A stretch of 64,000 nucleotides of DNA from NCBI GenBank assembly GCA_965198095.1, contig OZ240239.1, positions 118,641-182,640 of the forward strand. Direction: 5' to 3'. Source of the stretch: Candidatus Latescibacterota bacterium. Lineage in GTDB: Bacteria > Latescibacterota > UBA2968 > GCA-2709665. Positions 4,092 through 43,186 of this stretch are shown piece by piece. Made by a program: the position numbers and the translations under genes. The notes below the pieces were generated by a model. It searched no databases, was not told where the DNA came from, and worked only from the letters and a program-made list of their open reading frames with translations. Every line of letters begins with the position of its first letter. The stretch's first letter is position 1.

Positions 4092-4157
4092 CTCGCCATC
4101 ACCATAGGACTCAAGCAGTTGATTGCGCGAAACTCCGTCGCGAGAATGACCGTTTTA

Positions 4158-9309: not shown

Positions 9310-10821
9310 TCAACCCGAATGGGCAATTCGCACGTGAACGTCCTTCAGAAGGACTTTGTTCGACGGATCCCGGTTGATCACCTTGATGGTGTTCGCCCCT
9401 TTTCGGATCCGCTCCGGCTCGACGCCGTAGCTGACCCATTCCTCCTGGAGATCGCCGTTCGAAAGAGCGCGGTCGTTCAGCCTGACTTCCAGACGGTCCG
9501 CTTCGGTCAGACCGTCGACGCGGACGCTCAGCGTCACGCTGGGATTGGATCCCGAGTCCTTTCCGGGCAGGTCTTCGCCAATCGTCACAATCGCCGTGTG
9601 AGGCCGGGTCGGTAAGAGCATCACGGGACTTCCCGGGTCCAGCGCAGTCGGATACTCGTAAAACCGAAGCAGGCCTTTGATCTCCCGCCCCAGCAGAAAC
9701 CGAAAATGACCGTCCGGGAAGTAGTCCTTGTCCAGTCCGGCCAGGAGCTCGGGGTCGCCCACCTCCCGCCAGGCCGCGCTCGATGGGTCGAACAGATTGT
9801 AGGTGTGGATCCCGTCCGCACCCGCGTGCCAGACGTACATCGCCCTGGCGCGGAAGTTCCTGAGCGCGATCCCGTCCTGCACGTCGGGCGGCCCCTGACG
9901 CCGCCTGGATCCTGACCAGGTCAGATCCGGATAGACCGGCACGCCGTGCTCCCGGCCCAGCTTTACCCAGGTCTCCCACGGCGCCAGCTCCATCTCCCCG
10001 GGGACCAGCAGATCCACGAGATCCTCCTTCAGCCACGCCCTCACGTCCAGGCCCATCACTTCGCAGCACCCGACAGAGGCGGGAAGGCGCTCCGCCACGA
10101 GCATCGGGCGGCCGCGCTCCAACCCGACCTGCTCCGTCATCTCGCGAATACGGCGGTGCAGGCCCGTCATGATCTCCCGCTCCACCTGCGTGCAGTCCTC
10201 CCCATTCGTGCCGCATTTGAAATGAGGCGGGTGGCGAAGCCAGTCCAGCTCGATGCCGTCCACGTCGTACCGCTTGCAGACATCCGCAAGCAGCTCGAAC
10301 GCCCGTTCCTGAACCTCCGGTTCGTCGTAATTCAGTCCTGACCACATTCCGTACTCGGATGGGTCTTCCAGCGATCCGTGCAGAACCTCGGGGTGGTCCT
10401 TCTTGAACTGAGGAATCATCTCAGACCACCGCGGCTGGCCGTCGTGGGTATCGTTCATCCGCATAGACATGAAAATCTCGATCCCGTTCTCCCTGCAGAA
10501 GTCGATCATAATCTGAAGAGGGTCCAGACCCGCCTCGTGGAACGCCTCGATCATGTTCGGCGCGAACACACGCGTCTTCGCGAGGAACGGTTCCGCGACA
10601 TCGCTGATGTAGGACACGTGACCCAGCCCTGCGCTCCAGGGGCAGTAGAAGATCGAGTCGACGTGCGATCCGATCAGCCCTGTCGTGCGGTCCGCAAGGA
10701 GAGCTTCGCGGCTCACCTCCTTGAGGTTGTAGACAATATCGCAGCCGTCGTTGTTGAAAATGATCCGACGTTTTCGGTGTTTGGCCTGCTCTCGCTGTTC
10801 CCTCAGTCGTTTCAATTCCAT
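9310..10821 (-). CDS. GHL-family TIM-barrel glycoside-hydrolase-like protein, subfamily B
   Basis: Start refined to MELKRLREQREQ.. (M23 of ORF 9310..10887), supported by a GAGGAG Shine-Dalgarno and by the N-terminus of the 7705 paralog. Motifs IIFNNDGCDI, DSIFYC, YDVDGIELDWLRHP. Confidence 0.6.
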   Translation of the reverse strand: MELKRLREQREQAKHRKRRIIFNNDGCDIVYNLKEVSREALLADRTTGLIGSHVDSIFYCPWSAGLGHVSYISDVAEPFLAKTRVFAPNMIEAFHEAGLDPLQIMIDFCRENGIEIFMSMRMNDTHDGQPRWSEMIPQFKKDHPEVLHGSLEDPSEYGMWSGLNYDEPEVQERAFELLADVCKRYDVDGIELDWLRHPPHFKCGTNGEDCTQVEREIMTGLHRRIREMTEQVGLERGRPMLVAERLPASVGCCEVMGLDVRAWLKEDLVDLLVPGEMELAPWETWVKLGREHGVPVYPDLTWSGSRRRQGPPDVQDGIALRNFRARAMYVWHAGADGIHTYNLFDPSSAAWREVGDPELLAGLDKDYFPDGHFRFLLGREIKGLLRFYEYPTALDPGSPVMLLPTRPHTAIVTIGEDLPGKDSGSNPSVTLSVRVDGLTEADRLEVRLNDRALSNGDLQEEWVSYGVEPERIRKGANTIKVINRDPSNKVLLKDVHVRIAHSG

Positions 10822-19530: not shown

Positions 19531-19660
19531 AGCTTACGTTCGCCAGCAGGAGCTGGCTCCTACCTTATGAACGGCTTGTGAATATTACCTGATTCCAAAC
19601 GCCGGTAAATCCGGTAGGAGCCGCCTCCCGGCGGCGAACACTTCACCCCGATACTCTCAA
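19531..19660. repeat. REP-like hairpin repeat (GGCTCCTACC ... CCGGTAGGAGCC family), single copy
   Basis: ..GCCAGCAGGAGCTGGCTCCTACCTTATGAACGGCTTGTGAATATTACCTGATT..CCGGTAAATCCGGTAGGAGCCGCCTCCCGGCGGCGAACACTTCACC. Same family as the units around the RAYT gene. Confidence 0.6.
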
Positions 19661-24243: not shown

Positions 24244-24754
24244 GACGCTTTCTTCCTCCTCCTTGCGCCGTCGCGATGACGCCGTGGGCGTACAAACAGG
24301 TGATGAGATTCGGTCCTTACGATCCGAGATTCACCGGGGTGAACGACGCCCGCCGTGACTCCTGCAGGAGTTTCAGGACTTGCCTCTCCCTCCACAGCAC
24401 CTGTACATATTGAGAGCCGCGCTGCTTATGCAGGCGGCTCGCCATAGACCGCTCCTCCGCCGTTGGATCGCGCCGTTTGCGGCTGCCGGCGAGGGCCAAG
24501 ATACGGTCTGAAAATCAGGCCGTCAACCGAAAAAATTGCGCCGGATGACCCCTCCCCCGGCCACGCCCGGCCCTCAGCGCGAGAATGAAATGTCCGTGCC
24601 GAGAGAATCGGGACGTCCCGCTCTGTCGGACTCGTCTACAGACTCATCCGATGCAAGCCAACAAATCGACTCGTCTTTCGGGTGCCGCTGTCGTCGGCTA
24701 CGCTTTCCTAAAGTCACGTTACGGGACTTCGCGCAGTTTCGTAATATAAGACAA

Positions 24755-24782
24755 GCCGCCCGGAGCAATTGCTCCGGGCGGC
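24755..24782 (-). terminator. intrinsic-terminator-like hairpin after the FadL-like outer-membrane protein gene
   Basis: Perfect stem GCCGCCCGGAGC aatt GCTCCGGGCGGC. On the minus strand it is followed by UUGUCUUAUAUU. Confidence 0.55.
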
Positions 24783-24841
24783 CGCCTTATCCTTCGACTT
24801 CGACGCACCCGATCTCTCACCGGGTGCCTGCTCTGTCCGCT

Positions 24842-25888
24842 TTAGAAGGACCCGCTCACCGTAAACCGGATCGGCTTGTGGTCGAGCAGTTCATCCAGCT
24901 CAGAATACGACACGTCGGCCATGATGCTCCGACTACCGCCGAACGTGCCCTTGACACCCGCGCCCACGCTCCAGCTCTGAGCATCATACTTGAACCGGTT
25001 CCCGGCGCGCAGGGCGAGCATGTTGTTGAACCACAGCTCCGCGCCCACGTGATACCGCTGCCAGGAGTCTGTGTGATAGGCGCCCTCGAAGGCCACCGTC
25101 ACATACGTCGGGTCGCCTATGTTGCCCATCACCTCCCCGGCCAGGCCGAGGTTGAAGATCACGGGCTGAGACGACTCGAAGATGTCGATCGCGCTGACGT
25201 CGTTCCCCAGGTTCTTGATGCCCATGCCGATCCTCAGACTCTCGAACCCCGTGTGCATCAGCGTGCCCGCGCTCAGCAGCACCGCGGTGACCTCTTCGTC
25301 CAGACCCAGCTCGGACTTCACGTAACGCAGCTGGACGCCCGCCCCCAACTTGTCGGTCATCTGATAGGCATAGTGAAAACCGATGCCCGTGTCGCCCAGA
25401 TCCAGCATCTGACCCGTGCCTTCCGGGGCCAGGGACGTGGTCTGCTCGACGTCCGGAAAGCTCAGCGTGATCACCGAAAGCCCGACCACGCCGATCGGGG
25501 TGTTGACCGCAACGGCGCCCGTGCGGTAATCCATCTCGCCGAACCACCGCATCCCGCCGAACGACCACCCGAAGTTCTCGATGCCGGCGATCCCGGCCGG
25601 GTTGTAGTAGATCGCGTCCATCCCGTCCGCCACCGCCGTGAAGGCCTCACCCATCGACTCCAGTCGGGCCGTGGGCGCGATCTTCAGGAAGTGGAACGTG
25701 GACGGATTCTGCTTCGTAAAGCGATCGAAGTCCGACAACGTCTCGTCCGAGAGCGACGCCTTCGGATCGAAGGGGATGTCCTGGAAGTCTGTCGTTACGA
25801 TTTCGGCCTGGGCCCATGCCGGGGCAGATGCAAACGGGAGAGCCGCAGCCAGCGCCAGGACGGTTAGCGTGCATACAATCCATTTCAT
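24842..25888 (-). CDS. outer-membrane beta-barrel protein, FadL/PorV-like
   Basis: 348 aa. N-terminal signal peptide (MKWIVCTLTVLALAAALPFASAPAWAQA). YYNPAGIA (NPA-type hatch motif). Alternating amphipathic strands. C-terminal Phe (..FTVSGSF). Confidence 0.5.
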   Translation of the reverse strand: MKWIVCTLTVLALAAALPFASAPAWAQAEIVTTDFQDIPFDPKASLSDETLSDFDRFTKQNPSTFHFLKIAPTARLESMGEAFTAVADGMDAIYYNPAGIAGIENFGWSFGGMRWFGEMDYRTGAVAVNTPIGVVGLSVITLSFPDVEQTTSLAPEGTGQMLDLGDTGIGFHYAYQMTDKLGAGVQLRYVKSELGLDEEVTAVLLSAGTLMHTGFESLRIGMGIKNLGNDVSAIDIFESSQPVIFNLGLAGEVMGNIGDPTYVTVAFEGAYHTDSWQRYHVGAELWFNNMLALRAGNRFKYDAQSWSVGAGVKGTFGGSRSIMADVSYSELDELLDHKPIRFTVSGSF

Positions 25889-31422: not shown

Positions 31423-31980
31423 CTATTCTCCTCCTAATGCTATCTCGCGAGAAAACTGCGCGGCAGTTGCGACATGGCCTCGTCGATTTGATGATGGCCT
31501 AACGCCGAAGCAATTTGCAACAACGGTGTTGCCGTGCTTACCGTAGAAACGTTAAACGCCATTCAGACAAGGCACCACCTCCTTGAACCTGAAGCGATAA
31601 CAAAAACTGTGAAATACACCCGCGGATTTAGAACTAGATAAACTACGCAGTATACGCTCGGCGTGTCAAGAAAATTCTCAGCTTCAAAAACAGACAGGTT
31701 GGGTAGCCTATTTTTCACGAACGACGCGTTGACTCTTCTCCGGCCCCGACGCGCGGGATGATTGAATTCCCGCGCTCAGAGAAACGGACCGTCTTCCTGC
31801 GTCGGACGCGCGTCTATGAACCTATCCGATGCAACATCAAAGGCCAACACATCGACTCTGTCTTTCCGGTTGTCGTTGTCACAGGCGAGGCTTTTCTGAA
31901 GGCGCGCCAACTCACGTTGCAAACTTCGTGACATGAAACAAGCCGCCCGGAGCAGGATGCGCGGCGTGACATCCGATCTC

Positions 31981-33258
31981 TCACCAGGTGCCGGCTCTGC
32001 CCGCTTCAGAAGGGCCCCTATAGACGGGCTCGAACGTGTCGTCGTCGTCCGCGCCGAACCCCGTGGGCGGATGCACGACGCGCGACGCGCGTTGCAGGAC
32101 ATAGACCACCTTGAGGCTTGAATTCCGAATCACAACCCAGGCAAGCTGGGCGTCATCCCGGGGTCTCAAGGCCACGCCGCGATTGGGGATGGCTCCGGTC
32201 GTCCATCCGTTCACGAGGGCACGATCCAGGGGGAGGCCCACAGTGCCGGTTTGGTCGATGGACGTAAACCGGCTGCTGTCGTAGGTCGTGTAGTGCAACC
32301 GCCCGGATTCTGCACTTGCATCTACGCGGTCGATCTGAAAGGGAAAGACATCGAAAAAGGAAAGGTCCGGATCGACCTCGACCTCCAGCTCAGCGGAATA
32401 GACGGTCCGCCGGGTCAGGTTCGGGACGTCGAATCGGAGGAGCGACCCATACCGGATGCCGGAGGCCACCATCAGCTGATCGGTCTCCGGACGGTCGTCC
32501 GTGCGCGCTCCCCAGTAGGTGTCGTCAACCGCACCGGTCTCAAATCGGTGTGCCTCTCCGCCAAGGGTAAACAGGAACTCGAGCTTGGGGCGCCGCCCCT
32601 CTGTTCCCGGCCTCGAGGCATCCCCCGACGTGAGCACGGTGAGAAACTCCGATCCGGCCGCCGGATGCAGCATCACCTCCAGAAACGGCGCGGCGGCGTC
32701 GGCATCCAGCGCGTCGTCCAGAATCAGTCCGGGAAGGTCGACCGTCAGGCGGCCGGCGCCATCGTCCGTGACAGTGGCGCCGGGTAACGCCGAAGCCGGA
32801 AGGTCGACGTGTGCGGCAGGATCCCGTCTGCTCACGAACGTGCTCGTTTCATCCCAAACCCCCTCCGGGCGGCTGATTTGCAGGTCCGGGATGCCGCGAC
32901 CGCCACCATCCGCGTGCGTCCGGAGATGCATCCGGAGCGATATCATGACAAGGTCGCGAGCGCTGTTGCCGCCCGCCGCGCGAGCCATGGAATCGGCAGG
33001 CATCCGGAAGCGAAGCAAAGACCTCAACACGATCCCGTTCATCCGCCCAACCCGCAACTCGTCAGACTTCCCGTGGACGAGTGGCACGATGCCCTCGAAC
33101 GTCGACTTACCCTCCGAAAGGGCGAGTGGATCCAGTTCTGTCAGGAGCGGCTCGGACGAGACCTCCGACAGCCTTACGACGTCGCCGGACTTCCCGCAAG
33201 AGACGATGGATGCGAACGCCAGAAGAGGCAGTGCGAGGAGGGATTTTGAGAAGGTCAT
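31981..33258 (-). CDS. hypothetical lipoprotein
   Basis: Start refined to MTFSKSLLALPLLAFASIVSCGKSG (lipobox IVSC). No recognisable domain. ORF track 31981..33414. Confidence 0.45.
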   Translation of the reverse strand: MTFSKSLLALPLLAFASIVSCGKSGDVVRLSEVSSEPLLTELDPLALSEGKSTFEGIVPLVHGKSDELRVGRMNGIVLRSLLRFRMPADSMARAAGGNSARDLVMISLRMHLRTHADGGGRGIPDLQISRPEGVWDETSTFVSRRDPAAHVDLPASALPGATVTDDGAGRLTVDLPGLILDDALDADAAAPFLEVMLHPAAGSEFLTVLTSGDASRPGTEGRRPKLEFLFTLGGEAHRFETGAVDDTYWGARTDDRPETDQLMVASGIRYGSLLRFDVPNLTRRTVYSAELEVEVDPDLSFFDVFPFQIDRVDASAESGRLHYTTYDSSRFTSIDQTGTVGLPLDRALVNGWTTGAIPNRGVALRPRDDAQLAWVVIRNSSLKVVYVLQRASRVVHPPTGFGADDDDTFEPVYRGPSEAGRAGTW

Positions 33259-33399
33259 GGGTCTTCCGGTGCTGCCGCGTCTTCCGTGAACCTTGAATTC
33301 CCTTCGTAAAGCTACGGAAAAGTGGGAAAAAGTAAAGCCTTCCAGGGGTGGTTCTCCAAACGGAATCGGCATTGGGATGGCATACACACACGTCGTCAT

Positions 33400-34250
33400 C
33401 CGCGGCTTCGCCAACAGAGTTGGCGATTGGATTGGCGCACCCTAAGTCGCCGTCTGTGGCTTCGCCAACAGAGTTGGCCATAGGATTGGCACATCTTAAA
33501 TCGCAATCTGTGGCTTCGCCAACAGAGTTGGCGATTGGATTCGTGCACCCTAAATCGCAATCTGTGGCTTCGCCAACAGAGTTGGCTCCTACCGGATTTG
33601 GGACGTTATGACATCGGTGAATCCAATAGGCCCAATAATCCGGTAGGAGCCGTCTCCCGACGGCGAACCATCTGATCGCAGTGTGGTGCCTCTGCTGAAC
33701 CTATGGGTGGCGATTGGATTCGTGCACCCTACGTCGCCGTCTGTGGCTTCGCCAACAGAGTTGGCTCCTACCGGATTCGGGACGTTTTGATATCGGTGAA
33801 TTCAATTCACCGGAAAATACGGTAGGAGCCGTCTCCCGACGGCGAACCATCTGATCGCGGTGTGGTGCCTCTGCTGAACCTATGGGTGGCGATTGGATTG
33901 GCGCACCCTAAGTCGCCGTCCATGGCTTCGCCAACAGAGTTGGCAATTGGATTGGCGCACCCTAAGTCGCCGTCCATGGCTTCGCCAACAGAGTTGGCTC
34001 CTACCGGATTCGGGACGTTTTGATATCGGTGAATTCAATTCACCGGAAAATACGGTAGGAGCCGTCTCCCGACGGCGAACCATCTGATCGCGGTGTGCGC
34101 CTCTGCTGAACCTATGGGTGGCCATAGGATTGGCGCACCCTAAATCGCAATCTGTGGCTTCGCCAACAGAGTTGGCCATGGGATTGGCGCACCCTAAATC
34201 GCAATCTGTGGCTTCGCCAACAGAGTTGGCTCCTACCGGATTTGTGGCGT
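33400..34250. repeat. mosaic BIME-like repeat array combining two repeat families
   Basis: Family 1 is a ~54-bp tandem unit: GTGGCTTCGCCAACAGAGTTGG followed by (C)GATTGGATTGGCGCACCCTAAGTCGCCGTCT-like sequence. Family 2 is the ~125-160-bp hairpin unit GGCTCCTACCGGATT..CGGTAGGAGCCGTCTCCCGACGGCGAAC, the same family as the RAYT-associated REPs. Confidence 0.7.
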
Positions 34251-34349
34251 TATGACATTGGCGCTACGGAGCGCAAAATACGTGCCGCCAGCAGCTCGGC
34301 TGCCCGCGGCGTTGCGCGCTTCTTCGTGTCACTCCGCGATACGAAAAAC

Positions 34350-34379
34350 AAGCCGCCCGGAGCGCCTGCTCCGGGCGGC
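34350..34379 (-). terminator. Rho-independent terminator of the 41604-to-34419 catabolic operon
   Basis: AGCCGCCCGGAGC gcct GCTCCGGGCGGCT hairpin followed on the minus strand by UUGUUUUUCG. Confidence 0.6.
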
Positions 34380-34418
34380 TGCTCATTGCCGCGATATGAT
34401 TTCGCCATTTGGAACCGA

Positions 34419-41604: not shown

Positions 41605-41654
41605 CTTGATACGCCCTCCTTGTCCTGAAAGTCCGTCCGCCCATCGCGCTGAGA

Positions 41655-41805
41655 CAAGCCCGGCAAATCCGGTAGGAGCCTTACCTTCGCCAGCAGGAGC
41701 TGGCTCCTACCTTATGAACGGCTTGTGAGTATTACCTGATTGCAAGCCCGGTGAATCCGGTAGGAGCCGCCTCCCGGCGGCGATCCATTCACGCCGATAC
41801 TCGCC
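41655..41805. repeat. REP-like hairpin repeats (1.3 units) on the 3' side of the RAYT pseudogene
   Basis: CCGGCAAATCCGGTAGGAGCC then a full unit CTTACCTTCGCCAGCAGGAGCTGGCTCCTACCTTATGAACGGC..CCGGTGAATCCGGTAGGAGCCGCCTCCCGGCGGCG. Confidence 0.65.
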
Positions 41806-41815
41806 TTGCTTGATC

Positions 41816-42323
41816 TTACCAATCCGGGAAAAGACACGAGAACGGCCAATCTTCTGGGGTTGCAACATATCTTTTTCTCACCGGATTTTCATGGATGTAT
41901 CCGATTTTCATGGATGTATCCGAGATGTCGAGCAAACGCCTCTTTGTTACGAAGCTTATGATCATAGAACCCGCGCTGCCAGAACCTTCCCGTCCTGCAT
42001 TGTAGTCTGTTGATTCCTCTAGCTGTATGGCTTCCGAATGAAGCCATCACGCTGGAAAGATCCTGATCCTCTCCCAAGGCCACGATCAAATGCAAGTGAT
42101 CAGGCATCAGGACGTATCCTTCACATCTGAGACGCTCATTTTCATGAAGCCAGCGCAAACACCGAACGATGAGCTCCGGCACTTCAGATTCCTCTTTCGG
42201 ATTCATTGGGTCGCGAACCAGTGGACCTGTAGTATCGTCCACGCACTTTGTTATGGAGTAGATGGATCCGGGCAAGGAATTACGCCATTTCCTCAGAGCC
42301 GATTGATGGAACCCTCTTTCCAT
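41816..42323 (-). pseudogene. REP-associated tyrosine transposase (RAYT; IS200-like Y1 HuH transposase) disrupted by a 19-bp tandem duplication
   Basis: The current ORF 41889..42323 encodes ..GYVLMPDHLHLIV.. (HuH) and ..RFWQRGFYDHKLRN..HLGYIHENRIHP, then stops. Removing one copy of the duplicated 19-mer (41881-41919, CCGGATTTTCATGGATGTAT / CCGATTTTCATGGATGTAT) restores ..YIHENPVRKRYVATPEDWPFSCLFPDW* and a 162-aa product ending at 41816. Confidence 0.7.
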
Positions 42324-42350
42324 TTTTTTACACGTATCAACCGACGGCCG

Positions 42351-42975
42351 AGCTTACCTTCGCCAGCAGGAGCTGGCTCCTACCTGATGAACGGCCTGTG
42401 AGTATTGCCTGATTGCAAGCCCGGTGAATCCGGTAGGAGCCGCCTCCCGGCGGCGAACACTTCACCTCGATCCTCGCCTTACCTTCGCCAGCAGGAGCTG
42501 GCTCCTACCTTTTGAACGGCTTGTGAGTATTGCCTGATTGCAAGCCCGGTAAATCCGGTAAGAGCCGCCTCCCGGCGGCGAACACTTCACCTCGATCCTC
42601 GCCTTACCTTCGCCAGCAGGAGCTGGCTCCTACCTCATGAACGGCTTGTGAGTATTACCTGATTTTTCAAACCCGGTAAATCCGGTAGGAGCCGCCTCCC
42701 GGCGGCGAACACTTCACCTTGATCCTCGCCTTACCTTCGCCAGCAGGAGCTGGCTCCTACCTCATGAACAGCTTGTGAGTATTACCTGATTTCAAACCCG
42801 GTAAATCCGGTAAGAGCCGCCTCCCGGCGGCGAACACTTCACCTCGATCCTCGCCTTACCTTCGCCAGCAGGAGCTGGCTCCTACCTCATGAACAGCTTG
42901 TGAGTATTACCTGATTGCAAGCCCGGTAAATCCGGTAGGAGCCGCCTCCCGGCGGCGAACACTTCACTTCGCAGA
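42351..42975. repeat. tandem array of five ~126-bp REP-like hairpin units on the 5' side of the RAYT pseudogene
   Basis: Five near-identical tandem units CTTACCTTCGCCAGCAGGAGCTGGCTCCTACCT[CT]ATGAAC[AG]GCTTGTGAGTATT[AG]CCTGATT..CCCGGTAAATCCGGTA[GA]GAGCCGCCTCCCGGCGGCGAACACTTCACCTCGATCCTCGC. Each contains the GGCTCCTACC/GGTAGGAGCC inverted repeat. No unique spacers. Confidence 0.75.
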
Positions 42976-43186
42976 AAGCAAGTATTGGGTGTGCCGTTTT
43001 GTCGTCAAAAGCCGATCGGAGACTAAGTTGTTGAATTTCACGCACCTGAAGCGAGTCTCGTCGCGGGTGTGGATCGATCTGCAAAAACCGGTCTGGGAAG
43101 ATAGGTAGGTAGGGCTTGAACGCTAAAACGTTCTTGGAGGAAGGAGACAGGATCGGTCGGCTGGCGCGCCCACTCTTGCCTCAAGG

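Follow-up and report, generated by a model that had tools for sequence, protein, structure and literature searches.

The ends of IS200/IS605 insertion sequences are subterminal hairpins (PMC3201880, PMC6006769). PATEs, MITE-like derivatives without tnpA, have also been described (PMC3119063), and class 3 TnpA-Y1 genes, which have atypical flanking hairpins and occur in high copy, have been reported to "resemble both IS and REPtrons" (PMC6006769). The repeat analyzed here, present twice in the window (the whole 64-kb stretch of DNA that was studied), appears to join an end of this kind to the tail of a host gene. We consider it a composite relic and not a dedicated regulatory element (probability about 0.8): a PorV gene tail plus an IS200/IS605 remnant, with copy B a duplicated and decayed version. 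The outcome is mostly a clean negative, in that the 41-mer and the 280-nt repeat would be a gene-tail/terminator fragment plus a dead IS end, and therefore no regulatory-RNA annotation is warranted.

The first-pass annotation had described an element of 240 nt in two diverged copies. Both copies were found, on the minus strand, where all neighboring genes are also encoded; the shared tract, however, is about 280 nt long. In a MAFFT alignment copy A (24852-24574) pairs with copy B (32016-31750) through 180 matches, 75 mismatches, and 36 gap columns (71% identity without gaps), and blastn gave 66% identity over 302 nt (E = 7e-15). As had been noted, both copies lie upstream of genes for large secreted or outer-membrane proteins; the distance to the start codon is 330-370 nt. 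They form direct repeats around a three-gene cassette. The features of the locus are:

24842..25888, minus strand: gene for a PorV/PorQ-family outer-membrane protein of 348 aa, ending ...TVSGSF-stop (NF033709, 131.2 bits, cut-off 90); copy A begins in its last codons
24842..31422, minus strand: three-gene cassette (SusC/CarboxypepD_reg-type protein of 1035 aa, protein of 801 aa, PorV-like protein of 348 aa), bracketed by direct repeats B and A
24809..24849, minus strand: copy A 41-mer (exact pattern match); it takes in the stop codon of PorV, then a conserved single-stranded tract of the GGCAGAGCAGGCAC type and, from hairpin 1, the 5′ arm with the loop
24805..24827, minus strand: copy A hairpin 1, GCACCCGGU-GAGAG-AUCGGGUGC, located in the PorV 3′ UTR with a stem of 9 bp (predicted folds)
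24744..24783, minus strand: copy A intrinsic terminator, with a GC-rich stem of 13 bp, GCCGCCCGGAGC/GCTCCGGGCGGC, and a T-rich tail behind it (terminator scan; fold z = -8.0)
24691..24743, minus strand: copy A spacer, 61% identical to B (segment identities)
24637..24690, minus strand: copy A remnant, probably the tnpA 3′ end of the IS200 family, collinear within a match to the IS-3′-end profile (24690-24574)
24574..24636, minus strand: copy A decayed right end (RE), with hairpin a (GAGTCC..GGAC) and hairpin b, the latter degenerate (RE profile E = 2.9e-5; motif profile 61 bits)
24498..24526, minus strand: sigma70-like promoter of the 824-aa gene, TTGACG-17-TATCTT (promoter scan), downstream of and outside the shared tract
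32009..32020, minus strand: what copy B keeps of the final PorV codons, GGGGCCCTTCTGA (alignments), within the 3′ end of the ORF for a 477-aa DNRLRE-domain protein and in another frame
31973..32013, minus strand: copy B 41-mer, 37/41 identical to A (pattern match)
31941..31964, minus strand: copy B broken terminator, with the 3′ arm GCTCCGGGCGGC and T-rich tail kept and the 5′ arm gone in a gap of ~23 nt (alignment)
31815..31878, minus strand: copy B remnant, probably the tnpA 3′ end, within a match to the IS-3′-end profile (31878-31751)
31750..31814, minus strand: copy B IS right end, with hairpin b still an 8-bp stem GCGCGGGA..TCCCGCGC, core 31753-31773 (RE profile E = 3.5e-8; pattern search)

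The conserved 41-mer singled out in the annotation occurs exactly twice (24809-24849 and 31973-32013), and no match was seen in 100 shuffles. It is 90% identical between the copies; the remaining segments are 61-76% identical. We attribute this higher identity to selection on copy A only, but gene conversion or a function in B may account for it instead. A pattern scan of a genome contig collection with GATCTCTCACCNGGTGCCNGCTCTG found no additional 41-mers, and the eight matches of a 19-base core in metagenomes were all attributable to chance, none of them extending; the full element is therefore lineage-restricted. A profile of the A/B pair recovered no third full copy in the 64-kb window. 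The proposal that conservation lies at the nucleotide level held up, and the element is non-coding in both copies. The copy A 41-mer spans the TAA of the 348-aa gene (24842-24844), and on the B side the 477-aa ORF enters the element for about 30-35 nt in another frame, with its stop at 31981-31983. As the annotation had maintained, the small ORFs that cross it are not conserved as protein; 1- and 2-nt indels have put them out of frame with each other.

Homologs of the 348-aa protein belong to PF19572 and are named PorV/PorQ. The 801-aa protein of the cassette carries a weak T9SS C-terminal signal. The same combination of SusC-like, 801-aa, and PorV-like genes was found again as paralogs in relatives. 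A larger gene duplication was rejected as the source of the repeat, since the proteins on either side are unrelated (E = 0.77 for the 348-aa and 477-aa pair, E = 1.7 for the 824-aa and 1035-aa pair), and a transposase assignment for the 477-aa gene was also rejected, as its product is the DNRLRE-domain protein. In one genome a 2-kb block containing copy B is 95-98% identical, whereas its adjacent cassette is just 84% identical, which could reflect recent transfer or constraint. Recombination reshuffles SusC-like/PorV-like cassettes in genomes of this group.

The 5′ part, about 100 nt, would be the native 3′ end of a PorV-family gene: last codons, hairpin 1 in the 3′ UTR, and a Rho-independent terminator. 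The order stop codon, hairpin 1, terminator recurs in the spacers between PorV and the 824-aa gene at four orthologous loci (L016, L018, L015, and L019), and the GGCAGAGCAGGCAC-type tract is kept downstream of PorV at the same loci. The structure of hairpin 1 is conserved among the PorV orthologs: 87.7% of cells pair, versus 27-47% with slid partners, and double changes are seen at two of the pairs (U-A to C-G; A-U to G-C). This covariation extends across the orthologs only; no common fold across A and B was obtained. In the copy A terminator 11 of 13 pairs are GC, the tail is TGTCTTATAT, and the structure lies on the coding strand downstream of the gene. Its stem is identical in type behind PorV orthologs and paralogs, and also behind an SDR gene (34352-34379). 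Folding is strong at the A-type loci (z = -3.5 to -8), copy A itself having z = -4.6. Behind paralogous PorV genes (L012 and L014) both hairpins are kept; the single-stranded tract is not. The arrangement resembles known Rho-independent terminators and protective 3′-UTR stem-loops, with a terminator after the stop codon and a second conserved stem-loop before it; it differs in that the tandem hairpins are specific to PorV-family genes of this lineage. It thus represents a conserved tandem-hairpin 3′ UTR behind Latescibacterota PorV-family genes. The intact hairpins of copy A presumably end and stabilize the cassette transcript, acting in termination and mRNA stability.

Copy B has lost this structure. 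A terminator-like hairpin had been ascribed to both copies; copy A has it, as a 13-bp stem with a T-tract, whereas in copy B it is broken. Unlike known terminators, copy B is without the 5′ arm, and the terminator scan found a 5-bp stem only (fold z = +1.6). The hairpin-1 relic (31969-31991) contains a C-A mismatch and is not formed in the predicted fold. B copies did not fold better than shuffled sequence (z = +1.2 to +1.6; whole B tract +1.16). Copy B nevertheless retains GGGxCCTTCTxA, and the B copy of a relative (L018), truncated so that hairpin b is missing, has a longer piece of PorV, GTTTACGGTGAGTGGGCCCTTC, matching ...FTVSGSF. In OZ252100.1, the chromosome of a related Candidatus Latescibacterota (L019), the DNRLRE gene has its own terminator at its end and no element behind it. 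Copy B, judged by these alignments, is probably a partial duplicate of a PorV 3′ flank in decay.

The 3′ part, about 125 nt, is best read from its alignments as an IS200/IS605-family remnant, consisting of a probable tnpA 3′ end and a two-hairpin right end. As in the IS200/IS605 family, it aligns with the tnpA 3′ end and right end of transposase-bearing copies, and the ends of the family found here are subterminal hairpins. A profile built from the 3′ 150 nt of two tnpA-bearing OZ252100.1 copies only matched copy B (E = 5e-11) and copy A (E = 1.7e-9), with no other match in the window below E = 0.3. The RE profile was built from 15 copies, none from the window. The assignment of tnpA fragments in A and B is probable and, taken alone, weak: coding-only tnpA profiles gave weak matches (E 0.014-0.5), and neither copy gave a significant blastx match to any of three TnpA proteins. 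With the IS1+IS2 coding-only profile the A and B sites were the two best matches in the window, B being the best (E = 0.11); a three-sequence coding-only profile recovered copy A and not B. An LE profile from six copies gave no significant IS left end in the window (best E = 2.6), and no tnpA was found within or beside either window copy. The window copies, which lack a transposase and a detectable left end and whose hairpins are degenerate, are dead fragments. The homology between A and B ends within a few nt of the IS right end; past this point similarity was not significant, 35% of shuffles scoring equally well. The spacer, 53-62 nt long, could in copy A stem from the original sequence downstream of PorV or from a degraded left part of the IS, and about 50 nt of it are retained in L016 and L018.

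Intact members of the family were detected in relatives. In OZ252100.1 a 138-aa HuH/Y1 transposase gene scored 77 bits against NF033573 (IS200/IS605; cut-off 55) and lies between inverted arms (9329-9384 and 9832-9887). The same chromosome carries tandem units with the same ends and no tnpA directly behind the PorV terminator. The 20-nt RE palindrome CGCGGGAATTCATTCCCGCG was found in 73 public genome stretches versus about 0.5 expected by our own estimate, including 11 in OZ252100.1 and 22 in another Latescibacterota MAG (SICM01), and also in a Gemmatimonas MAG, Balneolales, and Chloroflexota. At six of these loci a tnpA homolog lay inside the retrieved stretch. Solo two-hairpin units of about 58 nt, with unrelated flanks and many intergenic copies, were seen in relatives, and at least two diverged tnpA copies occur within one relative's genome. 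The tnpA-less units and scattered solo ends in related genomes resemble PATEs. Unlike autonomous IS200/IS605 elements, the window copies have no transposase, tnpA being found in relatives' copies only, and the remnant is multi-copy in relatives, with two copies within the 64-kb window. IS200/IS605 elements insert 3′ of a fixed tetra- or pentanucleotide and have neither terminal inverted repeats nor target duplication. The family also differs from classical IS200 in that its intact relatives have inverted ends, 73% complementary, and many solo right ends, which is more REP-like. A two-hairpin family of IS200-type, REP-like ends common to Latescibacterota, the Gemmatimonas MAG, Balneolales, and Chloroflexota is thus documented.

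The IS part is absent at the orthologous A locus of three relatives. In L016 and L018 about 155 nt of it are missing, and in L015 unrelated sequence stands in its place; overall the 3′ 155-190 nt of the element are absent or replaced at these loci. We infer the following order of events. An element of the IS200/IS605 family (Y1/HuH transposase) would once have sat just past the PorV terminator, leaving its 3′ ~125 nt. About 280-330 nt of a PorV 3′ flank, from within the last codons to the IS right end, would then have been duplicated to make copy B, and the duplicate fused, upstream of the cassette, with the 3′ end of the gene for the DNRLRE-domain protein, so that A and B came to bracket the cassette as direct repeats. 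The duplication may have been a tandem duplication of the cassette followed by deletion, or a rearrangement associated with the IS end. Copy B would subsequently have decayed through deletion of the terminator 5′ arm and a mismatch in hairpin 1. In essence the evidence bears out the alternative that the annotation itself had offered, the relic of an old segmental duplication; however, that alternative had been tied to an absence of further copies, and related genomes do contain additional copies of the 3′ part, since this part appears to be an insertion-sequence end.

It has been considered that the 5′ part of copy A (single-stranded tract, hairpin 1, and terminator) might be a 3′-UTR sRNA of the PorV operon and B a dead pseudo-copy of it, which is compatible with a composite relic. 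The usual layout of a 3′-UTR sRNA is directly upstream of a strong terminator, and the copy A tract has this position; GGCAGAGCAGGCAC is also nearly invariant behind PorV orthologs, and the hairpin after it varies by compensatory substitutions. The paralogs L012 and L014, however, keep the two hairpins and not the single-stranded tract, and a protective 3′ stem-loop accounts for the same data. From these patterns an sRNA seems unlikely.

Copy B could instead be a product of the IS machinery, a Y1 transposase having cut at an intact right end and at a cryptic site in the last PorV codons, so that about 300 nt of host sequence (gene tail, hairpin, and terminator) moved with the IS stump to a new site. 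Such an event, flank transduction by a transposon of the single-strand "peel-and-paste" type, is in our view quite unlikely. The sole positive hint in its favor is the end of the A/B homology a few nt from the IS right end.

An IS200-derived non-autonomous element (MITE/PATE-like) that had transposed twice, independently, to sites beside similar terminators, in place of one segmental duplication, would also give a right limit of homology at the IS right end; the family is mobile and multi-copy in relatives, and similar terminator stems recur in the genome. However, the homology extends to the left at 88-90% identity, taking in the terminator, hairpin 1, and the final codons of PorV; these three parts are absent from IS copies elsewhere, and there is no detectable left end. 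Such an origin is very improbable.

A shared cis-regulatory RNA leader, riboswitch, or attenuator for the two downstream envelope genes is more doubtful still and has very little credence. It would suit the position of both copies before large secreted or outer-membrane genes and the good folding of copy A. However, element A is separated from its gene by the conserved sigma70-like promoter, and copy B folds like shuffled sequence. The window shares the conserved promoter block TTTTTTCGGTTGACGG..TATCTT with L015, L016, and L017, and the promoter of locus A is kept at all orthologous loci, even those without most of the element, where 155-190 nt are lacking upstream of the 824-aa gene. At locus B a TTGAC-type promoter-like block beyond the element is conserved in L018. 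Rfam 15 gave no match at the gathering score in the whole window and none at E <= 1 at either locus. Of the terminator plus promoter/leader module suggested by the first-pass annotation, the terminator was borne out in copy A; a shared promoter or leader was not, the promoter of locus A and the promoter-like block of locus B lying outside the element. Its other suggestion, a small RNA common to both copies, failed on the loss of both 5′ hairpins in B, on shuffle-like folding, and on the empty Rfam search. A sigma54 promoter in TTGGC..TTGCAT was discarded on a reading of the sequence, as the two copies differ by 8 nt in spacing and neither fits the consensus. Chance resemblance or a hidden protein-coding gene, to which the small ORFs spanning both copies might point, can be set aside given the blastn E value, the 0/100 shuffles with a 41-mer, and six-frame translations without a shared ORF (different stops, ORFs out of frame).

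A further comparison is with REP/REPIN-RAYT systems, in which, as in the relatives only, short palindromic units in high copy flank a Y1 transposase gene in inverted orientation. The family differs in that the OZ252100.1 transposase scored 39 bits against the RAYT model NF047646, below the cut-off of 80, versus 77 against the IS200 model, in the presence of at least two diverged tnpA copies in one genome, and in having no evident GT[AG]G foot. A tblastn search of the window with the relative's TnpA gave just one weak match (42128-41895), which is a RAYT. This true RAYT of the window (41889-42323, 87 bits) belongs with a different, GTAG-type REP family.

The repeat is genuine and of ordinary origin: it consists of a gene-tail terminator and a remnant of an IS200/IS605-family insertion sequence (IS), both of known kinds. 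The genes around it all lie on the minus strand:

24243-21769, minus strand: 824-aa gene
25888-24842, minus strand: 348-aa gene, PorV/PorQ-family outer-membrane protein (NF033709, 131 bits, cut-off 90)
28334-25929, minus strand: 801-aa gene, weak T9SS C-terminal signal
31422-28315, minus strand: 1035-aa gene, CarboxypepD_reg/SusC-type N-terminus
33414-31981, minus strand: 477-aa gene, DNRLRE domain

Alignment of copy A (24852-24574) with copy B (32016-31750), both read on the minus strand, confirmed the first-pass annotation of two collinear, diverged copies (71% identity from 180 matched and 75 mismatched positions, with 36 gap columns; blastn E = 7e-15). They are direct repeats bracketing the three-gene cassette 31422-24842, and the proteins flanking A are unrelated to those flanking B. 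The best conserved block, a 41-mer, occurs exactly twice in the window and 0 times in shuffles; it is 90% identical between the copies, the remainder 61-76%. This higher identity fits purifying selection on A only; gene conversion may be an alternative source. As had also been noted, small ORFs across the element are not conserved as protein, the frames not being co-linear between the copies. A profile of the A/B pair matched no further complete copy in the window, where its sole other match was the shared terminator stem at 34345-34382; it gave several unexpected matches in L019 (a stretch retrieved, like the other L-numbered stretches, from a relative; L019 and L045 belong to chromosome OZ252100.1).

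The 5′ third of the repeat is the tail of the PorV gene. Spacers between the PorV and 824-aa genes were compared at the orthologous loci of L017 (PorV 99% identical to that of the window), L016, L018 and L015 (87-88%) and L019 (90%, the OZ252100.1 orthologue). All have the same layout: stop codon, the conserved tract GGCAGAGCAGGCAC, a hairpin (hairpin 1) whose 9-bp stem carries a 5-nt loop, then a terminator, GCCGCCCGGAGC-N4-GCTCCGGGCGGC followed by T's. In nine sequences hairpin 1 pairing holds in 87.7% of cells, versus 27-47% with slid partners, and double-sided changes were found at two pairs (U-A to C-G and A-U to G-C). Folds at these PorV loci are far better than those of shuffles (z = -3.5 to -8.0), and behind the paralogous PorV genes of L012 and L014 the arrangement of two hairpins is retained and differs in sequence. 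The conserved layout and pairing therefore identify the 41-mer as the PorV stop codon plus a 3′-UTR stem-loop. In copy A a bona fide intrinsic terminator lies 3′ of hairpin 1; judging from anatomy and conservation, the two most likely terminate and protect the mRNA of the cassette. The terminator stem (GCCGCCCGGAGC-N3-8-GCTCCGGGCGGC) occurs at 34352-34379 and 24755-24782 of the window and in L012, L014, L015, L016, L018 and L019, after unrelated genes (an SDR gene; PorV orthologues and paralogues), and is unusually stereotyped for independent terminators.

The 3′ ~125 nt of the repeat is an insertion-sequence stump. L019 carries a 138-aa gene (9406-9822) whose product has a HuH motif and scores 77 bits with an IS200/IS605 transposase model (cut-off 55) and 39 with a RAYT model (cut-off 80). 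Inverted arms lie on either side of this gene (9329-9384 and 9832-9887); the right one, GAGTCCGAC..GGAGGACTT..GCGCGGGAATTCATTCCCGCGCTG, forms two hairpins. Directly 3′ of the L019 PorV terminator lie some three units of ~285 nt in tandem, which share these left and right arms and lack the transposase; one keeps ~30 codons of the 3′ end of the transposase gene, tnpA (blastx E = 2e-6). A profile based solely on the 3′-most 150 nt of the two tnpA-bearing OZ252100.1 copies had exactly two matches in the window, 31878-31751 (E = 5e-11) and 24690-24574 (E = 1.7e-9), and a right-end profile from 15 non-window copies gave E = 3.5e-8 and 2.9e-5 at these sites. These independent profiles are the decisive test of the stump's identity. 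Taken by itself, the stretch that aligns with the tnpA coding end gives a weak signal (E 0.014-0.5). The two best window matches of a coding-only profile (IS1+IS2) were the A and B sites, collinear with the right end, and a three-sequence profile of that coding end recovered only copy A. Homology between A and B breaks off no more than a few nucleotides from the IS right end, with none significant beyond it. Because the window holds no cognate transposase and no detectable IS left end, the stump is inert passenger DNA.

The 20-nt palindrome of hairpin b, the second right-end hairpin, was found in 73 stretches of species-representative genomes, including 11 in OZ252100.1, 22 in Latescibacterota Baikal-deep-G205 and 13 in a Gemmatimonas MAG, with further ones in Balneolales, Chloroflexota and other groups. 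At six palindrome loci a tnpA homologue (31-100% identical) lies within the retrieved stretch, and many copies stand alone as two-hairpin units of ~58 nt whose flanks are unrelated. The family agrees with descriptions of IS200/IS605 ends and REP-like derivatives (PMC3201880, PMC6006769, PMC3119063). A clean example of an internal-deletion derivative is seen in L045 (5260-5067, minus strand; OZ252100.1): a tnpA-less unit in which the IS left end and the first ~22 nt of tnpA (ATGTCAAAGGCTCACACAGAAG) are joined to the right end. Immediately downstream of this unit is a second tnpA-bearing copy, which shares 71% identity with the first.

Copy B duplicates part of a PorV 3′ flank and is decaying. 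It keeps GGGGCCCTTCTGA, corresponding to PorV ...SF*, and copy B of L018 keeps 21 nt more (GTTTACGGTGAGTGGGCCCTTC), matching PorV ...FTVSGSF. Its terminator lacks the 5′ arm (a ~23-nt gap), its hairpin 1 has a C-A mismatch, and its fold is no better than shuffles (z = +1.6 in the window, +1.2 in L018). In L019 the DNRLRE gene has a GGTACC-type terminator of its own, and the element is absent behind it; B is therefore an acquisition of the window's lineage. It may have arisen by a tandem cassette duplication that had one of its breakpoints at the IS end, after which the upstream copy would have been deleted, or by an IS-end-associated event.

The SusC-like/~790 aa/PorV-like cassette recurs in paralogous form in relatives, which are Candidatus Latescibacterota (e.g., chromosome OZ252100.1). 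The block at 33699-31672 of the window, comprising repeats, the DNRLRE gene and copy B, shares 95-98% identity with L010 1-1975 and L013 59-1923. In a genome sharing this 2-kb block, identity is only 84% in the adjacent cassette, and in one assembly the block adjoins the paralogous cassette (L013 versus L012). These data suggest that the block was recently recombined or transferred, or that an assembly is chimeric. At the 5′ end of the SusC-like gene (window 31423-30890), the first ~500 nt are likewise 95-98% identical, whether paralogous cassettes or different genomes are compared (window, L010, L012, L013 and L017), as is the upstream GFO_IDH region in relatives; the remaining cassette is 70-84% identical. 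The homogenised 5′ end points to gene conversion, and together with the DNRLRE/B block it points to frequent regional recombination rather than constraint on B.

The element is not a leader. The shared promoter/leader module suggested earlier is not supported: the promoter of locus A (preceding the 824-aa gene) and the TTTTCTTGAC block of locus B both lie beyond the element, and much or all of the IS part is missing at some orthologous loci. The former, sigma70-like (TTGACG-17-TATCTT, 24526-24498), is downstream of the shared tract, with a T-run before it, and is conserved in every orthologue; the latter is conserved with L018, whose copy B has lost hairpin b. At locus A, ~155 nt of the IS part are missing in L016 and L018, and unrelated sequence replaces it in L015. 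Rfam returned nothing for the element. The 16-mer GGCCCTCGCCGGCAGC, just 3′ of the 824-aa gene promoter (window 24497-24482, minus strand), recurs at L045 ~5018, beside an IS copy in OZ252100.1.

Other repeats were also observed in the window. A 144-aa RAYT gene (41889-42323, minus strand; NF047646 87 bits, cut-off 80; HuH motif PDHLHLIV) is flanked by ~125-nt tandem repeat arrays (41615-41866 and 42288-43041) whose units contain the GTAG-type REP hairpins CCGGTAGGAGCCGCCTCCCGGCGGCGAAC and GCCAGCAGGAGCTGGCTCCTACC; this locus is REPtron-like and unrelated to the A/B element. Upstream of the DNRLRE gene (33338-34330; also 19533-19656) the same GTAG-type hairpins are found in nested tandem repeats of 54 nt and ~179/233 nt, the number of which differs among the window, L010 and L017. 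The motif GGTACCCGTGTTTTGCTTTCCCGGTACC (44-nt family D13) is found at gene ends at 4145, 17617, 19900, 21709, 35310, 49565 and 62725, as well as 3′ of the L019 DNRLRE gene, and resembles a second family of stereotyped terminators or REP-like elements.
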